Of a DNA stretch of 64,000 nt, positions 1,763 through 52,848 are shown piece after piece (the first letter of the stretch is position 1; every line of letters begins with the position of its first letter). Both the position numbers and the translations under genes were made by a program. Origin of the DNA: Candidatus Omnitrophota bacterium (lineage in GTDB: Bacteria; Omnitrophota; Gorgyraeia; Zapsychrales; Zapsychraceae); assembly GCA_015233115.1 (NCBI GenBank), contig JADFYJ010000001.1, positions 67,084 through 131,083 of the forward strand. Reading direction: 5' to 3'. The notes beneath the pieces are model-generated. The model was not told where the DNA came from. It did no database searches and was given only the letters and a program-made list of their open reading frames with translations.

Positions 1763-2932
1763 ATGGAGCAGCAATTAGAAGAGTTGCGTTTAAAAGAGAA
1801 GAAGCTGATTTATTTACTCGGTGAGACCATGTTTAATTTGTATAAGTCTCAAGGCGTGCGTTTTCTTTATACCTCTGCCGGTGAAGAAAAAGAAAAGGAG
1901 GTGACAAAATTAGTCAGATTGTTGGATTATATCGAGGACCGAATCGTTAAAATAGAAGAAATTTACAACGAGGAAGATGCGGAAGATGAAGCGGAATGTG
2001 AATGTGAATGTACAGAATGCGAATCAGAAGAAATGGAAGATAGCGCTGAAGACATGGCTGAAGCGGTAGCTGTTGAACCTGATTCCGAAATTATTTTAGG
2101 CGAAGAATCGCCCAAACAGGATGATGTCGTGGCTTTGGCTGAAAAACTGCTTCGACCCGATAAAGAAGTAGAATTAGAAGTAGAAATGATTACTCCGGTT
2201 GAGGCGGTAATCATGGACACGGTTGAAAATATATCGACTCCGGATTTGCCGATTGTTCAAGAAACCGCGGAGTCAACAGACGTGCTGCAAAATATTCTAG
2301 AATCTGCCGTGTTTGTTTCTGAGGCGGATAAAAATCTTTTTGAAAAAAATGTCAAACAGTATAAAAAAGGAACAGAACGCGAGCGGGAAGTCAGTATAAA
2401 CCAGATTTCGCATACGGTCAGCAATGAAGAACTCAAAAAAGTGTACCTTTTTGTGATGAAAGATTCCAGCGTTGCTGTTAGGCTGGCAGTTATGAAAAAC
2501 ATTTCGAGGATGAAGGAAAACGAAACTGCCGGATTCTGGGAATTGGGTTTGCATGACTCTGATATAAAAGTTAGAACCACAGCCATCAAAGGGATCGGCA
2601 CCCATGTTACAGATGCCCACCGGGAAGTTTTGGAAAATCTTCTAAATGATAATGACCCTTTAGTGCGTGGTTTGGCTGTGACATATCTGGGTATGTATTA
2701 TGGAAAGGACGGAGTTCTTAAGGCTTTGACGGCCTGGGAGGATGAAAGTCCTTACGTGCGGACAAGTTTAATTGAAATGATGTCTATAGTGAAGCCGGAA
2801 GGCGCGCTCTTGACGATCAAAAATTTATTATCTGATACTGATGAAGGTGTTAAGAAAGAAGCTGAAAAAGCACTCAAAAAAATTATGCCGGAAAGAAAAA
2901 GGGAAGGAACTCATGACAAACGAAAACGATAA
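1763..2932 (+). CDS. HEAT-repeat (PBS-lyase-like) protein with an acidic, Cys-containing N-terminal segment (ECECECTECESEEMED)
   Basis: C-terminal repeats with (D/N)xxVRxxA periodicity (DIKVRTTAIKGIG, DPLVRGLAV, SPYVRTSLIE, DEGVKKEAEKAL). SD-like GAGGAG lies upstream. Confidence 0.6.
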   Translation: MEQQLEELRLKEKKLIYLLGETMFNLYKSQGVRFLYTSAGEEKEKEVTKLVRLLDYIEDRIVKIEEIYNEEDAEDEAECECECTECESEEMEDSAEDMAEAVAVEPDSEIILGEESPKQDDVVALAEKLLRPDKEVELEVEMITPVEAVIMDTVENISTPDLPIVQETAESTDVLQNILESAVFVSEADKNLFEKNVKQYKKGTEREREVSINQISHTVSNEELKKVYLFVMKDSSVAVRLAVMKNISRMKENETAGFWELGLHDSDIKVRTTAIKGIGTHVTDAHREVLENLLNDNDPLVRGLAVTYLGMYYGKDGVLKALTAWEDESPYVRTSLIEMMSIVKPEGALLTIKNLLSDTDEGVKKEAEKALKKIMPERKREGTHDKRKR

Positions 2933-14059: not shown

Positions 14060-15514
14060 TTGATTAAAATTATGAAACTGCGTACACAACTGATAGTTTT
14101 AGTGTCATTGTTAATATTTATGATTTTGTGTTCTGTGTTTTTGATCAAATCCCAGTCCTGGCTGTTGGTAATCGCTGGCGTAGTCATGGGAATGGTCATT
14201 TCTCTTATTATCAGCAAATTTAAAAATGATGACCCTGAAGTTCTGGCGCAAATTGCCAAAGGCAGAACCGAGTTTGGAAAGTTATCCCAAACGCTTAAAG
14301 CTTCCTTGACTGAAAATGAAGATCTCATGAAGGAAGTAGCGGCGCGCAAAGAACGCGAAGAATTGATTCGCAAAAGTGAGATTAAGTTCCGTCATCTTTT
14401 GGACAGTCTGCCGGTCAGAGTATTTTATAAAGATAAAAATTCGGTTTTTTCCGCGTGTAACAAAGCGTTCGCGCAAGATCTAAACGCGTCAATCACTGAC
14501 ATCATTGGTAAAACAGATTATGATTTTTGTCTGAAAGAACTAGCAGACAAATACCGGGCTGATGATAAGCGGATTCTTGAATCTGGAAAAGTTCAAGAAC
14601 TTGAAGAAAGATACATAGCTGACGGAAAAGACATGATCGTGCAAACTATTAAAACTCCGGTTCGCAATGAAGAGGGCGAAATTACCGGAATATTAGTTAT
14701 TTTATGGGATATCACCGAGCGTAAACAGGCAGAAGATGCATTGCAAACCATGCATAAGGCGCTTGAGGATGCTCATAAACAACTTAAGGAGTCAATGGCC
14801 CAATTGGTGCAAGCTGAAAAGCTGACGGCATTGGGTGAACTTACTTCGGGCATCGCCCATGAATTAAATCAACCGCTGAATGTCACTAAGATTATTTGTC
14901 AGGGCATATTGCGGGATATACAAAAAGGAAGATATTCCGAGACAGAAGCCAAAACTGATTTGCCGCAAATTGTTCTGCAAATGGATAAACTCGCCGCGAT
15001 TATTACGCATATGCGTATTTTTACCCGTCAAACCGATGGCATGTTACAGGAAAAACAGGATATTAATGGTATTTTGAATAATGTGCTGAAATTTTTACGC
15101 CAGCAATATAAAGATCATAATGTTCATGTCATTGAAAATTTCGCGGTGGGTTTACCTCTGGTAAAAGTCGATTCTATTCGCATTGAACAAGTATGCTTGA
15201 ACCTTCTTACGAATGCTCGTTACTCAGTTGAAAATTCCGGAAAGGTTGCCCGGAAAATCGAAATTAAAACATATTATGATGACAGGCAGAATATGGTTAT
15301 TTTCGAAGTCGCTGATAATGGAACCGGGCTCAACGCGGAACAAAGAAATAAGTTATTTCAACCCTTTTTTACGACTAAAGCTCCGGGCAGCGGCACAGGT
15401 TTAGGATTATCAGTAAGCAAAAAAATTATTGAAGAACATAACGGCCGGATCGAAGAATGTGGGCAAGAGGGCGAAGGCGCGGTGTTTAGAGTATTTTTGC
15501 CGGCGGTGCAATAA
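14060..15514 (+). CDS. Membrane sensor histidine kinase (TM-PAS-HisKA-HATPase)
   Basis: Two N-terminal TM helices and a PAS domain. H-box GIAHELNQPL. HATPase G-boxes DNGTGL and GSGTGLGLS. Confidence 0.85.
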   Translation: MIKIMKLRTQLIVLVSLLIFMILCSVFLIKSQSWLLVIAGVVMGMVISLIISKFKNDDPEVLAQIAKGRTEFGKLSQTLKASLTENEDLMKEVAARKEREELIRKSEIKFRHLLDSLPVRVFYKDKNSVFSACNKAFAQDLNASITDIIGKTDYDFCLKELADKYRADDKRILESGKVQELEERYIADGKDMIVQTIKTPVRNEEGEITGILVILWDITERKQAEDALQTMHKALEDAHKQLKESMAQLVQAEKLTALGELTSGIAHELNQPLNVTKIICQGILRDIQKGRYSETEAKTDLPQIVLQMDKLAAIITHMRIFTRQTDGMLQEKQDINGILNNVLKFLRQQYKDHNVHVIENFAVGLPLVKVDSIRIEQVCLNLLTNARYSVENSGKVARKIEIKTYYDDRQNMVIFEVADNGTGLNAEQRNKLFQPFFTTKAPGSGTGLGLSVSKKIIEEHNGRIEECGQEGEGAVFRVFLPAVQ

Positions 15515-15517
15515 AAA

Positions 15518-15641
15518 TGTAACAGTGTGACAATGTGACAATGAAAAAGCGATTAATGGGAAGAAAATGTACGGTTTTAAAAAATAATTTTTATTTTTTG
15601 TTTTTTGCATTGTTACACTGTTACATTGTCACACTGTCACG
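15518..15641. repeat. Composite element made of a GTRACART octamer array, a GAAAAAGCGATTAATGGGAAG core, an AT-rich spacer and an inverted octamer array
   Basis: tgtaacagtgtgacaatgtgacaatg at 15518-15543 and its inverted counterpart cattgttacactgttacattgtcacactgtcacg at 15608-15641. Confidence 0.85.
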
Positions 15642-15672
15642 TTATTGATATAACAACTATTGAGGCTAAATT

Positions 15673-24400: not shown

Positions 24401-24714
24401 AGGAAGGCGCGATCAGTTTAACTGGATATCATAAAAATCTTATTATTACCCTGACGCATGACAAAGACGCTAATATGCTGCTCGTGAGTTTTACCGATAA
24501 TGGCATTGGTGTTCCTGATGAATTTAAGAAAAAGATTTTCGATCCTTTTTTTACGACCAAGGAAGTTGGTAAAGGGACAGGTTTAGGTTTATCAATCAGT
24601 TATGGTATCATTGAATCTCATAAGGGAAGAATCGAAATTGAAAGTAAAGCGGGTGAAGGCGCGGTATTTAAGGTATATCTGCCAATAGAAAAGCGTGACT
24701 ATGTAACAGTGTGA
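21472..24714 (+). CDS. Sensor histidine kinase (periplasmic Cache-like domain, HAMP, three PAS/PAC, HisKA, HATPase)
   Basis: TM helix, periplasmic domain, second TM helix plus a HAMP domain. Multiple PAS domains. H-box [16 protein letters not shown] and GKGTGLGLS. Start uncertain (21430 or 21472). Confidence 0.85.
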
Positions 24715-24838
24715 CAATGAAAAAACTATGGGAGAGCAAAACAATCGTATAGATGATAATAATTATTTATGTGATTGAAATTTTTATTTACTCATTTAAA
24801 ATGTTAATACAATTATTACACTAATTTGGAGAAATACC

Positions 24839-26024: not shown

Positions 26025-26561
26025 ATGGCAGGTACACCAAAGGGTTATGTTTTGCTGGTTGATGATGAAGATCCCATCCGTGAATCATTAGAAGAGCTTC
26101 TTACCGCCTGTGGGTTTAAAGTTTATAACGGGAATTGCGTAGATAACGCGATTAAAGTATTGGAAAAACAGGATGATATCGAAGCCATTGTTAGCGACCT
26201 TAAAATGCCTGGCAAAACCGGTATTGATTTACTGCATTATTTGAACGAAAATAACCGTCAAATTCCGGTTATATTTTTGACTGGTTATGGCACACTGGAA
26301 ACTTGTCAGGAAGCCGTTCGGGAAGGCGCGTTTGATTACATTCTTAAACCTATCGATGATAAAGACAAAGTGCTTTTTCCGTTGCGTCACGCTATTGAAA
26401 AATTCCGTCTCATCAAGAGTAATGAAGAATTAAAAATTGATATTTTGCGTATGGCTGAAGAGCATGAAAAATTATTGGACTCAATTTTAAATGATGCGCA
26501 GACTAAAGATAAAGTACAAGAGAAGATCAATTCAATTGTGCGCAAGTGGGAAACGAAGTAA
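26025..26561 (+). CDS. Single-domain response regulator (CheY-like)
   Basis: VLLVDDED...VSDLKMPGKTG receiver motifs. Strong SD AAGGAG. Confidence 0.8.
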   Translation: MAGTPKGYVLLVDDEDPIRESLEELLTACGFKVYNGNCVDNAIKVLEKQDDIEAIVSDLKMPGKTGIDLLHYLNENNRQIPVIFLTGYGTLETCQEAVREGAFDYILKPIDDKDKVLFPLRHAIEKFRLIKSNEELKIDILRMAEEHEKLLDSILNDAQTKDKVQEKINSIVRKWETK

Positions 26562-26590
26562 TTACTTATTAATAAAGAATAAAAGCAAAA

Positions 26591-26625
26591 AAAGACAGAT
26601 AAAATATATCTGTCTTTTTTTAAAT
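26591..26625 (+). terminator. Rho-independent terminator
   Basis: AAAGACAGAT-aaaatat-ATCTGTCTTT perfect 10-bp hairpin followed by a T-run. Confidence 0.85.
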
Positions 26626-26628
26626 AAA

Positions 26629-26646
26629 CGGAGAGGTAGGGATTCG
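26629..26646 (-). other. 18-nt duplicate of the tRNA-Ser 3' end (T-arm/acceptor fragment)
   Basis: cggagaggtagggattcg is identical to 26735-26752 of the adjacent intact tRNA. Downstream it diverges and does not fold as a tRNA. Confidence 0.7.
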
Positions 26647-26734
26647 GCGCCCTTCGGGTCGGCCACTCGCCTGCTAAGCAAAGGCTCCTACTCGTCGCCT
26701 TTAGCATGCTCTCTTCGAATCCTATATGATAAAA

Positions 26735-26819
26735 CGGAGAGGTAGGGATTCGAACCCTAGAAAGCTTGCGCCTTAACGGTTTTCAAGACCGCCGCATTCA
26801 ACCGCTCTGCCACCTCTCC
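26735..26819 (-). tRNA. tRNA-Ser(TGA)
   Basis: GGAGAGG/CCTCTCC acceptor, CUUGAAA anticodon loop, long variable arm, GGTTCGAATCC T-arm and discriminator G. Confidence 0.85.
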
Positions 26820-26874
26820 GAAAAAAATTACGAAGTAATTTTTTGAGGATCTCGAACCTTTAGGTGAGAGATCT
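26814..26874 (-). repeat. Conserved ~60-nt element upstream of tRNA-Ser (copy 1 of 3), with a GATCTC/GAGATC hairpin
   Basis: agatctctcacctaaaggttcgagatcctcaaaaaattacttcgtaatttttttc on the - strand, running directly into the tRNA 5' end. Near-identical to 43841-43901. Confidence 0.8.
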
Positions 26875-27038
26875 CAATCGAAAGTATCTCAATTATCCAC
26901 ATATACGAATTTTTGTCAAATATTTAGAAAATTTTGAATCTATAAATTTAATTTCCTATTTTTCTCATTTAGGTTAAAATACTAGTTAATTTAACTGGTT
27001 TGATGTGTATTGATTTTAATATTTTACAAGGAGGGTTT

Positions 27039-27695: not shown

Positions 27696-29147
27696 ATGAC
27701 AAAAAAACCTTTTTCTATTTCTAAATCGATCGAAGATGAATCTTTGATCCGAAAATTTTCGGTCATATTTTTAGTCATTTCATTACTGCCGACTTTAGTC
27801 CTTTTTTATTTTTATACCCAGTTATCTGGGACCGGTTCCATTCAAGTATCCGTTAAAAGTTTAAATTTCGCTCTGACTTTTATTGTTCTCGGCGTTTTAT
27901 TGGGTTATGGCACCATGCGGAGGATTATTAAAAATTTAATTGATTTAGTTACGTCTAATAAAAAAATTTTAGAACGAATATTGAGTCCTCAAAAATTAAA
28001 GGAAATGGGCTCGTCTAAAAATGAAATATCCATACTCACGCATTCTTTTATTGCGATTACCAGTGAGTTAGAAGAAAATGTCCGCGAACTGCAGTTAGCT
28101 AAAAATACCATTTATGATGTGATGAATAAGGTCGCAAAAGGGATGGCGAATATGGATCAGATCGAGACTTTTTTAGATTTGATTCTGGAGACAGTCACAG
28201 AGGCGATGTCTGGTCAGAAGGGTTATATCGTCCGGCTTGAACTTGACAGTAGTTTTAAAATTCATTCCGCGCATGGTGTTGCCCAAGATATTAATATTGA
28301 CCAATTATTATCTCCCGATGATATCACTTTTATTCGGGAAGTTTTAAAATCAAAAAAAGTCGATATTCGCACTAAAGATGATGTGGACTGGGCACAAAAA
28401 TTTAAAAGCGGAATATTTGAATTGCCATTTATTTGCGCTCCTTTAGTTAAGAAGGATGATATTCTGGGAGTATTAATTGTTTCCGGCCGCAAGATGGCCA
28501 GGGATTTTGACGCTGACGAAGGAGATTTAATGGCTCATTTAGCCGCGCAAACGGCAATTGCGATAGAAAACTCAAGGTTAAATAAAGATATTGAACAAAC
28601 GTATTTTGAAACTATTTCCGCTTTAGCTTTGGCGGTTGATGCTAAGGATCAATATTCTCGTGGGCATTTGGATCGGGTCGCTGATTGCGCGGATAAGATT
28701 GGCGTGCGTATGGGGCTTGAAGATAATGAGTTAAAACTTTTGCGAGATGCGGCGCGATTACATGATTTAGGAAAAATTGGTATTCCGGATGATGTATTGG
28801 GCAAAGGATCTCAATTAAGTGTAGAAGAATGGGTTATGATGCGTAAACATCCGGAAATTGGCGAAAGCATTATAAAGCCGGTTAGAACGTTATTACCTTT
28901 GTGTGATTTGATCCGGCACCATCATGAGAAGCTGGATGGTTCTGGATATCCGGATGGATTGAAAGGTAATGATGTCACGCCATTAGTCCGCATCATGGCT
29001 GTGGCAGATATTTACGACGCAGTAACGACTGACAGATCTTACCGGAAAAAAATAACCCCGCATGAGGCTTGCAATATTTTACGCAGTATGGGCAGTCAGC
29101 TAGATCAGGATGTCGTAGACATTTTGGCCGAGATTGTCGAGGAATAA
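27696..29147 (+). CDS. HD-GYP domain c-di-GMP phosphodiesterase with an N-terminal TM and GAF-like sensor region
   Basis: RLHDLGKIGIPD and HHEKLDGSGYPDGLKG signatures. Two N-terminal hydrophobic helices. Start uncertain (TTG at 27684 or ATG at 27696). Confidence 0.8.
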   Translation: MTKKPFSISKSIEDESLIRKFSVIFLVISLLPTLVLFYFYTQLSGTGSIQVSVKSLNFALTFIVLGVLLGYGTMRRIIKNLIDLVTSNKKILERILSPQKLKEMGSSKNEISILTHSFIAITSELEENVRELQLAKNTIYDVMNKVAKGMANMDQIETFLDLILETVTEAMSGQKGYIVRLELDSSFKIHSAHGVAQDINIDQLLSPDDITFIREVLKSKKVDIRTKDDVDWAQKFKSGIFELPFICAPLVKKDDILGVLIVSGRKMARDFDADEGDLMAHLAAQTAIAIENSRLNKDIEQTYFETISALALAVDAKDQYSRGHLDRVADCADKIGVRMGLEDNELKLLRDAARLHDLGKIGIPDDVLGKGSQLSVEEWVMMRKHPEIGESIIKPVRTLLPLCDLIRHHHEKLDGSGYPDGLKGNDVTPLVRIMAVADIYDAVTTDRSYRKKITPHEACNILRSMGSQLDQDVVDILAEIVEE

Positions 29148-29179
29148 ACTATATTTGAAATTGTCATTATTTTGTATTA

Positions 29180-29272
29180 AGATCTCTCACCTGACGGTTC
29201 GAGATCCTCACCATTCTCGGATGGATGATAGAGGTTTAATTTATTGAAGTCGGAGAGGTGTCTGAGTGGTTG
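29180..29272 (+). repeat. Upstream tRNA-Ser element (copy 2) followed by a 21-nt tRNA-Ser 5' fragment
   Basis: agatctctcacctgacggttcgagatcctca at 29180-29210. ggagaggtgtctgagtggttg at 29252-29272 duplicates the first 21 nt of the tRNA at 29359. Confidence 0.75.
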
Positions 29273-29358
29273 GCCGTTGATAATTTTGATGCGGCACCAG
29301 GCAATAATTGAAACGGTTCGCACACGATTAGGTGTGAATAAATGCTAATATTTTTTTT

Positions 29359-29446
29359 GGAGAGGTGTCTGAGTGGTTGAAGGTGGCGGCCTCGAAAGTC
29401 GCTGTTTCGCATTGCGGAACCCAGGGTTCGAATCCCTGCCTCTCCG
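29359..29446 (+). tRNA. tRNA-Ser(CGA)
   Basis: GGAGAGG acceptor, anticodon loop CUCGAAA, long variable arm, CAGGGTTCGAATCCCTG T-arm, CCTCTCC and discriminator G. Confidence 0.85.
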
Positions 29447-29805
29447 TTTAAATTTAATCAGTCAAGGGATGAGAACCCAAAAGGGGTGTGTCAGGGGAAA
29501 GCCTGTTTCCCCTGTTCTCTAGAGGGGTGACAGCGAAGCGCCAGAGGGGGTATGGCCCCCTATGGAGAGGATGAGCGACTAGCGAAGACGAGTTCGTTTC
29601 CCTGCCTCTCCGTTTAAATTTAATCAGTCAAGGGATGAGAACCCAAAAGGGGTGTGTCAGGGGAAAGCCTGTTTCCCCTGTTCTCTAGAGGGGTGACAGC
29701 GAAGCGCCAGAGGGGGTATGGCCCCCTATGGAGAGGATGAGCGACTAGCGAAGACGAGTTCGTTTCCCTGCCTCTCCGTTTAAATTTAATCAGTCAAGGG
29801 ATGAA
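29447..29805 (+). repeat. Tandem array of 2.2 copies of a 166-bp structured unit, each ending in a tRNA 3'-end mimic
   Basis: Units 29447-29612 and 29613-29778 are identical by eye. A third partial unit follows. Internal hairpins are CAGGGGAAA..TTTCCCCTG and AGGGGGTATGGCCCCCT. Each unit ends GAGTTCGTTTCCCTGCCTCTCCG. Confidence 0.9.
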
Positions 29806-29891
29806 AATATTTATTTTTGTTAGTAATCATATAGATTAATGGGACAATAATTTCGTCTTATAAAATACCTGACATTAAACAGGAGGCAGAC

Positions 29892-30875
29892 ATGCGGCGA
29901 ATCAAAAGCCTGTACATCTTTTGTTTAATTATGTGTATATTTACGTTTGCGGGTTGTACAAATAAATCTGCTTCAAAAAAACCTATCAAAATCTCCCTGA
30001 ATGTTTGGCCTGGATATGCCATTGCTTACCTTGCCCAGGAGAAGGGTATTTTTAAAAAAAACAATGTTGCAGTAGAATTGGTTTTAAAGGAATCCACAGC
30101 TGAATCTCTCGCTTTGTTTACTGACGGAGATGCTGACGGATGTTTGGATATTTTTATGGACGCGATTATGATTAACGCGAAAGGGATTCCGGCTATAATT
30201 GTTTCCCTGATAGATTATTCTACAAGCGGTGATGTTATTATAGGCAGACCGGAAATCCAGTCGTTATCTGAGCTTAAAGGGAAAACTGTGAGTTTTGAAG
30301 GGGTGAATACTTTCTCGCATATATTTGTCGTAAACGCGCTTGAAAAAGCGGGTGTCGAGGAAGATGATCTTAAATTTGAAAATATTAATGCCCATGATGT
30401 CTTGTCCGCGTTGGATGAAAAAAGGATTGACGCGGGACACACCTGGGAGCCCACCAAATCACGCGCATTAAAAAAAGGATATAAGATATTAGCCAAAGCG
30501 GGCGATTATCCCGGCATGATCACCGATGTTTTACTTTTTACACCGACAATGATAAAGGAGCGGCCCGAGGATATTCAGGCTATTATAAAATCATTGTTTG
30601 AGGCTCAGGATTATTTAAATAGTCACAAAGAGGAATCAATTTTGATTATGGCTGACAAAATGAAAATGTCCAAGGAAGAAATGATCGCGGGATTGGAAGG
30701 ATTGTATCAGCTGGATTTAAAAGAAAATATGACTTTGTTAACAACAAAAATTACCACGTTGGATGCTGCGGGAAAATTGATCATGGAATTTTATCTTAAC
30801 CATGGACAGCTTTCGAAAATCATCGATATTAAGAATATTGTTGAGCGAAAATTTATCGTGGAGTTGTCAAAATGA
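29892..30875 (+). CDS. Lipoprotein substrate-binding protein (NMT1/SsuA-like), paralogue of 20508..21488
   Basis: Lipobox FAGC. Shares GKTV(S/A) and WP/W-GY blocks with the other binding protein. Its stop overlaps the downstream kinase start (ATGA). Confidence 0.6.
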   Translation: MRRIKSLYIFCLIMCIFTFAGCTNKSASKKPIKISLNVWPGYAIAYLAQEKGIFKKNNVAVELVLKESTAESLALFTDGDADGCLDIFMDAIMINAKGIPAIIVSLIDYSTSGDVIIGRPEIQSLSELKGKTVSFEGVNTFSHIFVVNALEKAGVEEDDLKFENINAHDVLSALDEKRIDAGHTWEPTKSRALKKGYKILAKAGDYPGMITDVLLFTPTMIKERPEDIQAIIKSLFEAQDYLNSHKEESILIMADKMKMSKEEMIAGLEGLYQLDLKENMTLLTTKITTLDAAGKLIMEFYLNHGQLSKIIDIKNIVERKFIVELSK

Positions 30876-43739: not shown

Positions 43740-43840
43740 TTGTAGCTTGCCGTTAATCAAAATAATTTTTCATAGCAATATTTTTACTTTATGATATTCT
43801 AGTTTTCAATAAATTTGATTAAATAATTATAAGTAATTTA

Positions 43841-43901
43841 AGATCTCTCACCTAACGGTTCGATATCCTCAAAAAATTACTTCGTAATTTTTTTCGGAGA
43901 G
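43841..43901 (+). repeat. Upstream tRNA-Ser element (copy 3), ending in a tRNA 5'-like GGAGAGG fragment
   Basis: agatctctcacctaacggttcgatatcctcaaaaaattacttcgtaatttttttcggagag. This is the reverse complement of 26814-26874. Confidence 0.8.
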
Positions 43902-43967
43902 GGCCGTTAATCCGGATGTTGTTATAGAAACGGCACAAATCCCGGATATTTGATAAAAGTATTTTTA

Positions 43968-44052
43968 GGAGAGGTGGCAGAGCGGTTGAACGCGCACGCT
44001 TGGAAAGCGTGTGACTCGCAAGGGTCCCAGGGTTCGAATCCCTGCCTCTCCG
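43968..44052 (+). tRNA. tRNA-Ser(GGA)
   Basis: GGAGAGG acceptor. Anticodon stem CACGC/GCGTG with loop UUGGAAA. Long variable arm. CCAGGGTTCGAATCCCTGG T-arm and discriminator G. Confidence 0.85.
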
Positions 44053-44261
44053 TTTTAAATTTAATCAGCAAAGGGATGAGAACCCAAAAGGGGTTAGTAA
44101 GGGGAAAGCTTGTTTCCCCTTTTCTCTAGAGGGGTGACACCCCTGCCGTTTTGATTCGTAATCAAGAATACAAAACGAATCAGCAGGGGGCCAGAGGCTG
44201 AGTGACCCCCTATGGAGAGGATGAGCGAATAGCGAATCCGAGTTCGTTTCCCTGCTCTCCG
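44053..44261 (+). repeat. Single 209-bp variant of the tRNA-linked repeat unit (with a ~45-bp insertion), ending in a degenerate tRNA 3' mimic
   Basis: The opening (tttaaatttaatcag...aaagggatgagaacccaaaagggg) and closing (ctatggagaggatgagcga.tagcgaa..cgagttcgtttccctgctctccg) blocks match the 166-bp unit at 29447. Confidence 0.85.
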
Positions 44262-52557: not shown

Positions 52558-52576
52558 GGGATGTGTAAAATATTAA

Positions 52577-52848
52577 GTAACCGAGTAACCGAGTAACCGA
52601 GTAACCGAGTAACCGAGTAACAAAGTAACAGAGAAAAAGCGATTGGTGGAAAAGTGCAAGAGCAGTAAATAAGAAAAAATTAATTAATAAAATTAAGTAA
52701 ATTTCATGTCGTAAATTAGGATTTTAAGCGAAATTATATTTTTAAATTTTTTATTATTAATGTTTTTAATTGTTTTTTGTTAGATTTATTTTTTCATTTT
52801 TTTTTGTGTTTTTACTCTGTCACTCGGTTACTAGGTTACTTTGTTACT
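52577..52848. repeat. Inverted pair of NGGTTACT octamer arrays (7 inverted copies and 4 direct copies) flanking a 185-bp AT-rich spacer with a GAAAAAGCGATTGGTGGAAAAG core
   Basis: (agtaaccg)x5, agtaacaa and agtaacag at 52577-52632. ctgtcact, cggttact, aggttact and ttgttact at 52817-52848. Same octamer family as 94-125. Confidence 0.9.

Follow-up and report, generated by a model that had tools for sequence, protein, structure and literature searches.

A tandem repeat array following a bacterial tRNA-Ser(CGA) gene is probably a divergent member of the tRNA-linked repeats

The tandem array that follows the tRNA-Ser(CGA) gene in the window, which is the entire 64,000-nucleotide stretch of DNA analysed here, is probably (we put this at roughly 65%) a divergent member of the tRNA-linked repeats (TLRs), the class that includes E. 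coli RtT; as such it would be co-transcribed with its tRNA, released by tRNA-end processing and variable in copy number through recombination. We call it divergent because neither the Rfam RtT model nor our own models score the window units significantly. As defined in PMC8144298 and Rudd 1999, TLRs are sequences of tRNA and rRNA operons that terminate in 18-19 bp identical to the 3′ terminus of the gene before them; a locus carries 1-5 of them, and they have been without known function since their description in 1978 (PMC8144298). In the window such units follow three different tRNA-Ser genes. All three begin at the base after the tRNA discriminator and lie directly 3′ of the gene, within its operon and on its strand, with 2.3 head-to-tail units at the CGA locus and one each at the GGA and UGA loci. 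Their ends copy that of the tRNA at 18 of 18 positions for UGA, at 19 of 21 for CGA, and as a block missing one C for GGA, which we count as the end identity of the class.

Table 1. Features of the three tRNA-Ser loci, with positions numbered from the first nucleotide of the window.
Feature	Position	Strand	Basis or remark
tRNA-Ser(CGA) gene, no encoded CCA	29359-29446	+	ARAGORN; Rfam tRNA 47 bits; sequence
TLR-like unit 1, 166 nt: trailer, 5′ arm, GGAUGAGAAC core, hairpins, tRNA 3′-end copy	29447-29612	+	Tandem Repeats Finder; sequence
TLR-like unit 2	29613-29778	+	sequence identical to unit 1
Partial unit 3: trailer and core start, stops within GGGATGA	29779-29804	+	Tandem Repeats Finder; sequence
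5′ arm and core AGGGAUGAGAAC	29465-29476	+	sequence; motif statistics; family-wide pairing
Hairpin CAGGGGAAAGCCUGUUUCCCCUG	29492-29514	+	sequence; folds
GCGAAGC mini-hairpin, C-GNA-G triloop type	29533-29539	+	motif enriched in TLR bodies
GGAGAGG-AUGAG-CGAC: 5′ acceptor-strand copy, then shortened AUGAG..CGAC core	29564-29579	+	unit minimum free energy (MFE) fold; sequence
tRNA 3′-end copy GAGUUCGUUUCCCUGCCUCUCCG, T-loop AA changed to UU	29590-29612; second copy 29756-29778	+	sequence; repeat search
tRNA-Ser(GGA) gene	43968-44052	+	ARAGORN; Rfam
Single TLR-like unit, 209 nt, homologous to the CGA-linked unit	44053-44261	+	sequence; repeat search; fold
tRNA-Ser(UGA) gene	26735-26819	-	ARAGORN; Rfam
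Third TLR-like unit, 106 nt, 3′ of tRNA-Ser(UGA)	26629-26734	-	sequence
Strong intrinsic terminator, 16-bp stem and T run	26586-26622	-	downstream of the UGA-linked TLR, not of the tRNA

Tandem Repeats Finder delimited the CGA-linked array at 29426-29804, with a 166-bp period, 2.3 copies, 99% matches and a score of 744, and a separate repeat search placed its copies at 29426-29591 and 29592-29757 (99%) and recovered a 60% copy at 44033. The repeat register begins within tRNA-Ser(CGA), upstream of its 3′ end. At the end of the gene, GTTCGAATCCCTGCCTCTCCG is matched by GTTCGTTTCCCTGCCTCTCCG in the repeat (29592-29612 and 29758-29778) at 19 of 21 positions, including all of the last 14. The presence of a partial third unit means that the direct-repeat block reaches 26 nt past the tRNA-end copy. 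As a side observation, the last 21 nt of the tRNA gene constitute the first copy of that block. Each description of the array given by the initial annotation was borne out: a 166-bp unit repeated in tandem directly after tRNA-Ser(CGA), with units 1 and 2 identical; a 209-bp variant after tRNA-Ser(GGA); two hairpins per unit, at 29492-29514 and, with GGGGG/CCCCC arms, at 29546-29560 in unit 1; and unit ends that mimic the 3′ end of the upstream tRNA.

Within the CGA-linked unit, the 5′ arm and core, which recur at 29631-29642 in unit 2, could pair with the tRNA-end copy through AGGGA with UCCCU (29599-29603) and GAAC with GUUC (29592-29595). In the MFE fold, GGAGAGG can also pair with CCUCUCC (29605-29611) to form a 7-bp acceptor-like helix ending in G73. 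Hairpin CAGGGGAAAGCCUGUUUCCCCUG is closed by C-G here and by A-U in its GGA-linked counterpart (44098-44120); the change is compensatory. The motif GGATGAGAAC occurs three times in the window against 0.13 expected, a count reached in 0 of 100 shuffles, and every occurrence sits 20-21 nt past a tRNA end or a tRNA-end copy.

The GGA-linked unit comprises a core at 44074-44083, an extra hairpin at 44137-44186 and a tRNA-end copy at 44240-44261, and it terminates in GAGTTCGTTTCCCTGC-TCTCCG, with one C deleted. Its MFE structure is predicted to contain the same helix between the 5′ arm and the tRNA-end copy as that drawn for the CGA unit. Folding of the unit, which the initial annotation had suggested as a check, gave a clear result for the GGA-linked unit (z-score -4.98, with equal stability in 0 of 200 shuffles) and one barely above shuffles for the CGA-linked unit (z -1.74). 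In the UGA-linked unit the last 18 nt, CGAATCCCTACCTCTCCG (26646-26629), are identical to the 3′ end of tRNA-Ser(UGA). CGAAUCC of the tRNA-end copy forms a 7-bp closing helix with the core, GGAUUCGAAG (26722-26713), which is unmutated in this unit. At this locus the terminator is placed after the TLR, so that tRNA and TLR form one transcription unit; no terminator or promoter-like site was found between tRNA and unit at the CGA, GGA or UGA loci.

Read from their sequences, these units share a layout. An inverted, antisense copy of the T-arm, made up of the T-stem complement and AUGAGAA, opens the unit; a small hairpin and a body rich in hairpins but variable come next, and the tRNA 3′ end, copied directly, closes it. 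The conserved core GGAUGAGAAC reads as the universal T-loop in antisense, with GA in place of UC. For example, AUGAGAA of the core at 29465-29476 is the antisense of T-loop UUCGAAU carrying this change. Neither the third, UGA-linked locus with its 106-nt element nor the antisense T-loop nature of the 5′ motif had appeared in the initial annotation. The same design was found at 81 metagenome loci, beside 13 types of tRNA and on contigs of 29-74% GC. Pairing between 5′ arm and tRNA-end copy extends over a mean run of 4.97 bp in 78 distinct TLRs from metagenomes, compared with 2.93±0.13 bp when arms are shuffled among loci. In alignment A1, 6 of the 10 pairs of this helix (P1) are changed on both sides (28 cells against 11.3, reached in 0 of 500 shuffles). 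Pairing in P1 would follow automatically if the tRNA were the source of both arms, and it is therefore no proof of selection on RNA structure. The tRNA-end copy begins at A58 in 49 of 77 TLRs; the CGA- and GGA-linked units carry UU in place of A58 and A59 within it. Across 83 TLR bodies, X-C-GNA-G-X′ mini-hairpins number 134 on the sense strand against 19.8±4.5 after shuffling, and the antisense equivalent occurs only 9 times. In one case the same locus differs in copy number, with two units in L003 and four in L008 between identical flanks.

A search for the core elsewhere connects the window to other genomes: of 185,579 reference genomes, only two contain the 22-nt core GGGATGAGAACCCAAAAGGGGT, one from Gracilibacteria and one from Schleiferiaceae, and both matches (L001 and L002) are repeats that copy a tRNA end. 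We built two covariance models, R1 from 12 TLR units and R2 from 37 units, and R2, trained without L001 and L002, scores these at 41.9 bits (E 1.4e-8) and 37.9 bits (E 1.4e-7). A relaxed core motif retrieves the enterobacterial arrays L003 and L008, which match E. coli loci annotated as "RtT sRNA | tRNA-Ser" and score 39.5-42.3 bits with Rfam RtT (E 3e-5 to 1.5e-4), just below its gathering score of 45 bits. Putative homology of the window units to RtT beyond the core rests on architecture and on this kind of two-step chain.

The three best R1 matches in 128 kb are exactly the three core sites, at 12 bits (E ~0.09) and with the 3′ strand misplaced. The best window match of R2 is the UGA-linked unit (E 0.46), and R2 does not recover the CGA- and GGA-linked units. 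A profile searched with nhmmer ranks the window sites first at E 0.5-0.6, short of significance; within the window, unit 1 of the CGA array is the top match of R1 and nhmmer alike. The Rfam search, which the initial annotation had likewise suggested, did not bring out RtT: at the gathering score the whole window yielded nothing except the three tRNAs, RtT was without a match even at E<=10 in 29100-29900 and 26560-26860, and a permissive scan of the CGA and UGA loci returned no RtT, ribozyme or other credible family. Matches to sX4, Plastid-psbI-rps4 and mascRNA at the window loci were rejected as due to the tRNA itself. When the CGA and GGA loci are checked for an RtT-type core, they show GGAUGAGAAC, a CCC-AAAAG-GGG hairpin and a 5+4-bp closing helix, with UUCGA altered to UGUGU or UUAGU; 74 of 78 TLRs have GUUCGA directly after the small hairpin, and these two units do not. 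Exact searches gave zero matches for a 21-mer in viral contigs and zero for a 20-mer in metagenomes, and tandem-motif matches in viral contigs were discarded as mostly due to chance, 8 of 11 lying in coding DNA (W-D-E-N-type repeats).

Among the closest known systems are the E. coli TLRs, including the 178-bp repeat of tyrT with its rtT RNA (RF00391); a tyrT-linked RNA product was reported in 1991 (PMC8144298). Like the window units, they lie 3′ of a tRNA on the same strand in tandem, in units that end in a tRNA-end copy. Both have the GGAUGAGAA core followed by a small hairpin, a G-rich 5′ arm able to form P1 of the Rfam model with the tRNA-end copy, and GCGNAGC and CCCGNAGGG hairpins. The block GACCCGAAGGGCG, at 26660-26648 in the UGA-linked unit, is identical in the tyrT repeat. 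However, the window units obtain no reportable score in the Rfam model and have no terminator between tRNA and core, and they lack CCA because it is not encoded in their tRNA genes. Further differences from RtT in the CGA and GGA units lie in their degenerate UGUGU or UUAGU in place of UUCGA, in a longer body with a second, nested GGAGAGG-AUGAG-CGAC module, and in UU for A58/A59. The host is also not an enteric bacterium, with a window GC content of 39.8% and tRNA genes that are devoid of CCA.

Other systems resemble the units in part. RrA, RrB and RrF, 3′ of 5S rRNA in E. coli rrnA, rrnB and rrnD, have in common with them read-through transcription, processing and a copy of a stable-RNA 3′ end, which has been proposed to direct 3′ processing, but the gene to which they are attached encodes 5S rRNA and not a tRNA; in vitro they bind both Hfq and CsrA, via GGA motifs, and a CsrA-binding predictor scores all 19 tRNA-linked TLRs below 0.01 (PMC8144298). 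The model of Xanthomonas sX4 (RF02223) spans a tRNA-Ser and its trailer to GGGGGGUGAGA, with tRNA CCCCCC paired to a downstream G-run. It scores 31.9 bits at the UGA locus and 23.3 bits at the CGA locus against a gathering score of 70; most of this is contributed by the tRNA-Ser itself, and sX4 is described as an sRNA, not a repeat.

In the mechanism that we favour as most likely, the unit is co-transcribed with the tRNA, folds on itself and is freed by the processing of tRNA ends, while unequal recombination alters the copy number. From the observed layout of terminators and promoters, the tRNA promoter would drive transcription of the unit, which would thus belong to the tRNA precursor. Pairing of the 5′ arm with the tRNA-end copy would then close it into a multi-helix fold, so that, as we propose, the antisense arm leaves the real tRNA undisturbed. 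In the CGA and GGA units an alternative, internal GGAGAGG/CCUCUCC pairing could yield a 7-bp look-alike of the acceptor stem ending in the discriminator G. Since each unit boundary repeats the tRNA 3′ end and its trailer, tRNA 3′-end enzymes may be expected to cut there also. In a genome without encoded CCA the cutter would probably be of RNase Z type, acting after G73, and in enterics RNase E or exonucleases. The expected products would be discrete RNAs of ~166 nt (CGA), 106 nt (UGA) and 209 nt (GGA). Release of the window units by RNase P and RNase Z, as the initial annotation suggested, would rest on E. coli precedent, where RrA/B/F are transcribed and processed (PMC8144298). Copy number would shift when the 47-bp direct repeats formed by tRNA end and trailer recombine unequally or allow slippage.

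A broader reading, in which TLRs are one pan-bacterial class at the 3′ ends of stable RNAs with a dedicated mechanism that copies the T-arm both ways, and the window holds a divergent lineage of it, is speculative and on balance unlikely. Under it, TLRs could be mobile ssDNA or RNA elements, or processing or catalytic RNAs built on a T-loop/anti-T-loop junction with tandem G.A pairs. Also unlikely is that the window units are themselves a non-autonomous mobile or self-propagating ssDNA or RNA element, of the REP/IS200-like hairpin kind or inserted from an RNA template, with ends built from the target T-arm. Inverted and direct local T-arm copies at many tRNAs do need some copying mechanism, arrays and copy-number differences are observed, and the bodies are rich in the sense-strand mini-hairpins counted above. 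As DNA, mini-hairpins with a GNA triloop, d(GCGAAGC) for example, have unusually high stability. However, the strand bias of these hairpins is equally compatible with an RNA role, and no transposase, reverse transcriptase or HUH nuclease adjoins any unit examined. The window copies also carry the downstream flank of the gene and no CCA, by which we rejected an origin from reverse-transcribed mature tRNA for this window.

The alternative raised by the initial annotation, an amplified integrase attachment-site duplication, is not supported, and we regard it as improbable. It would hold that crossover by a tyrosine integrase within the T-loop left the tRNA 3′ end in two copies, attL and attR, and that repeated integration or amplification of this scar or miniature made the array. 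When a tRNA 3′ end is directly repeated from the T-loop onwards, as here, this is the usual signature of integrase att sites of phages and ICEs, and a phage integrase gene with a tRNA-Ser 3′ fragment adjoins the arrays in L003, L007 and L008, which indicates that a prophage uses the same tRNA end. However, the L003 and L008 arrays lie on the host side, outside the prophage. In the window, no integrase or cargo separates the copies: only 143-188 nt of non-coding DNA lie between tRNA-end copies, the 106-209 bp units are without coding capacity, and the flanking ORFs encode signalling proteins, a substrate-binding protein and a channel, among which Pfam finds no recombinase. A conserved non-coding core and layout in tandem units of 100-200 bp, recurring at 13 tRNA types on contigs of 29-74% GC, are likewise unlike attL/attR. 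The att reading leaves unexplained the 5′ arm, an inverted T-arm copy that pairs with the 3′ copy, and TLRs are also found 3′ of 5S rRNA genes (PMC8144298). Of the interpretation first given, then, the comparison with tRNA-linked repeat transcripts named the right class, as the architecture of E. coli TLR/RtT (PMC8144298) indicates, and the statement that the array is not a CRISPR stands, whole 166-bp units being identical and free of unique spacers; its att alternative does not.

That the array is a functionless recent tandem duplication or an assembly artefact beside a tRNA gene is very improbable. Units 1 and 2 are indeed identical and the fold of the CGA unit is not significantly above shuffles, but three separate loci of the window carry diverged units, the hairpin change between CGA and GGA is compensatory, core and layout occur in unrelated genomes, and the third copy is partial, with T-loop AA against TT, as expected of a true repeat. 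A hammerhead-related self-cleaving ribozyme, in which a GAUGA-(stem)-GA three-way junction akin to domain 2 would free the units by cleavage, is the most remote of these readings: the order 5′ arm-GGAUGA-hairpin(G...C)-GA-body-AA-3′ arm has hammerhead type I topology, and G5, A6, N7, G8, A9, G12 and A13 are present, but against the hammerhead C3 U4 G5 A6 N7 G8 A9...G12 A13 A14 the TLR core reads G G G A U G A...G A (C/G/U), with the essential C3, U4 and A14 replaced by G, G and mostly C or G; catalytic positions are not kept, and with no ribozyme family at E<=10 in the Rfam scans of the CGA and UGA loci, self-cleaving ribozymes were rejected. Tandem G.A pairs like those of the hammerhead core, kink-turn and k-junction could arise where AUGA-(G...C stem)-GA meets a three-way junction, a resemblance only, and such pairs are more simply read as the anti-T-loop facing the T-loop. 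A guide-RNA-like role (TnpB/IscB omega-RNA with the tRNA end as guide) was rejected as well, there being no adjoining nuclease gene and the 5′ arm pairing with the supposed guide; retrons, integron attC and IS110 bridge RNAs, also considered, had no supporting feature.

As a probable divergent TLR, the array indicates that the TLR design is present well outside enteric bacteria, and the follow-up adds at least 78 distinct relatives beside 13 kinds of tRNA as well as the Gracilibacteria and Schleiferiaceae members. The conserved core receives a simple reading, universal T-loop antisense with two changes, and sense-strand C-GNA-G mini-hairpins emerge as a family-wide signature; together these bring the old question of TLR function within reach of comparative genomics and of simple experiments on RNA. 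In annotating genomes, TLRs should not be confused with att sites, CRISPRs or misassemblies. Minor observations on the unit bodies are that GUUUCCCCUGUUCUCU, the 3′ side of the 29492-29514 hairpin, looks like a degenerate tRNA-end copy, and that the GGA-linked unit has a long hairpin where the CGA unit has its GCGAAGC mini-hairpin.

The initial annotation had described a 166-bp tandem repeat directly after tRNA-Ser(CGA), and Tandem Repeats Finder indeed detected an array at 29426-29804 (period 166 bp, 2.3 copies, 99% matches), in which units 1 and 2 are identical. A 209-bp variant after tRNA-Ser(GGA) was likewise present where it had been reported, and a third case, linked to tRNA-Ser(UGA), had been overlooked. 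As had been proposed, the unit terminus imitates the 3′ end of the upstream tRNA: each CGA-linked unit ends in GAGTTCGTTTCCCTGCCTCTCCG, three bases of which depart from the tRNA's GGGTTCGAATCCCTGCCTCTCCG (a T-stem G is replaced by A, and T-loop AA by TT). At this locus the repeat also takes in 26 nt of trailer, giving direct repeats of ~47 bp. The UGA-linked element closes with an exact 18-nt copy of its tRNA's 3′ end and is followed immediately by a strong intrinsic terminator. A 22-nt block, GGGATGAGAACCCAAAAGGGGT, is identical in the CGA- and GGA-linked units, and the window contains three occurrences of GGATGAGAAC where 0.13 would be expected, all of them 20-21 nt past a tRNA end or a copy of one. 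The first hairpin is closed by C-G in the CGA-linked unit and by A-U in the GGA-linked unit, and where the former carries GCGAAGC (29533-29539) the latter has a long hairpin at the equivalent position. The GGA-linked unit is much more stable than shuffled sequences (z -4.98), with a predicted fold that includes the closing helix; the fold of the CGA-linked unit is unremarkable against shuffles (z -1.74). A nested GGAGAGG can pair with the terminal CCUCUCC to form a 7-bp acceptor-like helix.

Features of the three tRNA-Ser loci in the window, and phage-array RNA loci on other contigs
Feature	Location	Strand	Basis
tRNA-Ser(CGA)	29359-29446		ARAGORN + Rfam
CGA-linked unit 1	29447-29612		sequence reading
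CGA-linked unit 2, identical to unit 1	29613-29778		sequence reading
CGA-linked partial third unit, breaks off within GGGATGA	29779-29804		sequence reading
tRNA-Ser(GGA)	43968-44052		ARAGORN + Rfam
GGA-linked 209-bp relative of the CGA-linked unit	44053-44261		
tRNA-Ser(UGA)	26735-26819	minus	ARAGORN + Rfam
UGA-linked 106-nt element	26734-26629	minus	
TTAAGATCTCTCACCTnAnGGTTCGAGATCCTCA motif	29177-29210	plus	
TTAAGATCTCTCACCTnAnGGTTCGAGATCCTCA motif	43838-43871	plus	
TTAAGATCTCTCACCTnAnGGTTCGAGATCCTCA motif	26844-26877	minus	
Phage-array RNA	L024 2282-2478, between tRNA genes 2207-2281 and 2479-2553		
Phage-array RNA, further loci	L026, L029, L042, L048, L060, L063 and about 20 more		

Rfam scans of the window recognised the tRNAs and no family besides tRNA, and the Rfam RtT model matched nothing even at E<=10 at the CGA and UGA loci (29100-29900 and 26560-26860). 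An exact scan for GGGATGAGAACCCAAAAGGGGT across one genome per species (185,579 species) returned two matches only, on a Candidatus Gracilibacteria contig (L001) and a Schleiferiaceae contig (L002). In the latter it is located 3′ of tRNA-Ser(GCU), within a 137-bp tandem unit whose last bases repeat the 3′ end of that tRNA; the layout in L001 is the same, with another tRNA-like end. A second scan, in which the hairpin loop of the core was relaxed and viral contigs were searched, led to enterobacterial prophage-edge contigs (L003, L007 and L008) where a tRNA-Ser 3′ end is followed by 2-4 units of 167-170 bp, each terminating in AATCCCCCTCTCACCGCCA. These units score 39.5-42.3 bits against RtT (RF00391; E 3e-5 to 1.5e-4), slightly below the gathering score of 45, and match E. 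coli loci annotated as 'RtT sRNA | tRNA-Ser'. RtT is one of the tRNA-linked repeats (TLRs), first described in 1978 at tyrT (PMC8144298). E. coli K-12 carries 22 copies at ten loci, and the final 18-19 bp of every copy are those with which the preceding tRNA or 5S rRNA ends; transcription and processing have been demonstrated for the three copies linked to rrn operons, which also bind Hfq and CsrA in vitro (PMC8144298).

Comparison of the E. coli tyrT and serX repeats with other units revealed a common anatomy. At its 5′ side a unit carries the T-arm of the tRNA, together with the beginning of the 3′ acceptor strand, in reverse complement, with UC in the loop changed to GA; for example, an L008 unit reads GAGAGGGGGAU-GAG-AACCCCC where the tRNA reverse complement reads GAGAGGGGGAU-UCG-AACCCCC. 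This antisense copying of the T-arm explains why GGAUGAGAAC is conserved across phyla. After a short loop, the T-stem 5′ strand is repeated in sense orientation together with UUCGA; a variable body comes next, and the unit finishes with AAUCC joined to the 3′ strands of the T-stem and the acceptor, plus CCA if the gene encodes it. AUGAGAA facing UUCGA|AAU would form two sheared G.A pairs at a three-way junction. The unmutated GGAUUCGAA is carried by the window's UGA-linked unit and by one unit of another contig, L018.

Metagenomes were scanned for T-loops with GGATGAGAAC 25-55 nt further on, which gave at least 120 loci. Among the 124 matches listed, 81 (78 distinct) repeat tRNA positions 60-74 at a distance of 26-257 nt downstream, with at least 13 of 15 bases matching. 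These 81, on contigs of 29 to 74% GC, involve tRNAs for Ser (32), Gln, Ala, Lys, Thr, Leu, Met, Pro, Tyr, Arg, Val and Glu, an excess of Ser that may partly be an effect of the T-loop sequence demanded by the pattern. Within this set, 49 of 77 copies begin at A58, the trailer recurs after the copy in 31 of 77 units, and a UUCGA-like block follows the small hairpin in 74 of 78. Across 83 TLR bodies, X-C-GNA-G-X′ mini-hairpins are strongly enriched on the sense strand: there are 134, where dinucleotide shuffles give 19.8±4.5 and the antisense equivalent occurs only 9 times, and 77% of units carry one or more. Pairing between the 5′ arm and the copy extends over uninterrupted runs averaging 4.97 bp, as compared to 2.93±0.13 when arms are shuffled among loci. 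Both sides changed in six of the ten pairs of the closing helix in our TLR alignment (A1), a covariation reached by none of 500 shuffles. Such pairing does not by itself prove selection on the RNA fold, since it is expected by construction if the tRNA templated both arms.

By position, strand, 3′-end identity and tandem units, all three window loci qualify as TLRs under the descriptive definition; model scores do not place them in the family. The three core sites rank first in the window with nhmmer (E 0.5-0.6) and with R1, our covariance model of 12 TLR units (E about 0.09); with R2, built from 37 units, the top hit in the window is the UGA-linked unit (E 0.46), and the CGA- and GGA-linked units go undetected. 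R2 was trained without L001 and L002 and gives them E values of 1.4e-8 and 1.4e-7, and therefore the sole two reference genomes with the window's 22-nt core are clear family members. Considering also the GGATGAGAAC statistics and GACCCGAAGGGCG, which is common to the UGA-linked unit and the tyrT repeat, we regard the array as a divergent TLR variant and not as a member of Rfam RtT. In contrast to the enteric repeats, the array lacks a terminator between tRNA and core and lacks CCA, has UGUGU or UUAGU in place of UUCGA and UU in place of A58 and A59 in the tRNA-end copy, and has a longer body with a second, nested GGAGAGG-AUGAG-CGAC module. This kind of element has been known since 1978; what the window contributes is a divergent lineage in a non-enteric genome of 39.8% GC whose tRNA genes lack CCA. 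The element is ordinary within its class, and the class poses a long-standing puzzle that becomes easier to address with these data.

Judged by predicted sites, the units belong to the tRNA transcription unit, because no promoter-like or terminator-like site was found between tRNA and unit in the window and the UGA locus terminates after its unit. Read-through from the tRNA promoter would transcribe the units, each of which would fold through pairing of its 5′ arm with the tRNA-end copy, and tRNA 3′-end maturation enzymes would cut every unit boundary to yield discrete small RNAs. The window's copies include the gene's downstream flank and lack CCA, which rules out an origin from mature tRNA; therefore they arose by DNA-level duplication. 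Unequal recombination would expand and contract the arrays, and copy number at one locus does differ between related strains (two units in L003 and four in L008, flanked by the same sequences). A mobile single-stranded DNA or RNA element fits less well than such a tRNA-linked repeat and is kept alive by the mini-hairpin enrichment and the variety of tRNA hosts. Nor does the scar of an integrase att site fit as well, and the same holds for a hammerhead-like ribozyme and for an artefact.

At the enterobacterial locus (L003 11840-12300; L008 300-930, minus strand) the TLR array borders directly on a phage integrase gene and a tRNA-Ser 3′ fragment, so that one tRNA end serves both prophage and repeats.

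All three tRNA-Ser genes in the window share a conserved upstream motif of 34 nt, TTAAGATCTCTCACCTnAnGGTTCGAGATCCTCA. It is a hairpin containing a T-loop-like GGTTCGAGATCC, is situated at or slightly downstream of promoter-like sites, and could be a shared promoter or leader element. An A-run/T-run hairpin, AAAAAATTACTTCGTAATTTTTTT, follows it at the UGA and GGA loci. Copies of tRNA 5′ ends also occur upstream of the genes (29252-29357 and 43896-43967), a 21-nt copy (GGAGAGGTGTCTGAGTGGTTG) preceding tRNA-Ser(CGA) and a 7-nt GGAGAGG preceding tRNA-Ser(GGA), each followed by a related GCCGTT...AACGG hairpin insert that is missing at the otherwise similar UGA locus. These look like a 5′-side counterpart of the 3′ repeats. 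Of the window's 37 ORFs that reach 200 aa, 36 lie on the plus strand. Elsewhere in the window, an octamer array (AGTAACCG, 7.2 copies) spans 52576-52633, an inverted 16-mer array lies 52 kb away at 89-126, and related GTAACAGTGTGACAATG repeats occupy 15513-15646, 24692-24738 and 52609-52652.

Phage tRNA-gene arrays contain a conserved structured RNA of about 180-210 nt, which begins about 50 nt past a tRNA with ...GACCCnnAGGATGAGAAGTG... and closes with ...TATAATTACCGCCGCGGGACGCAGAGCA. It matches no Rfam family at gathering score and, having no tRNA-end copy, was ruled out as a TLR; RNAalifold on six copies predicted 49 pairs, 21 of them with compensatory changes.

The Xanthomonas sRNA model sX4 (RF02223) gave sub-threshold matches at 26665-26834 (minus strand, 31.9 bits) and 29350-29500 (plus strand, 23.3 bits). 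Because this model is essentially a tRNA-Ser gene plus trailer as far as GGGGGGUGAGA, the described sX4 sRNA may itself be a tRNA-Ser-linked repeat transcript. In E. coli K-12, R2 identified a fourth TLR unit in the tyrT-tyrV spacer (L019 1066-1190, minus strand, 66 bits), and three further units lie downstream of tyrV; rttR is the sole ncRNA annotated in this region.
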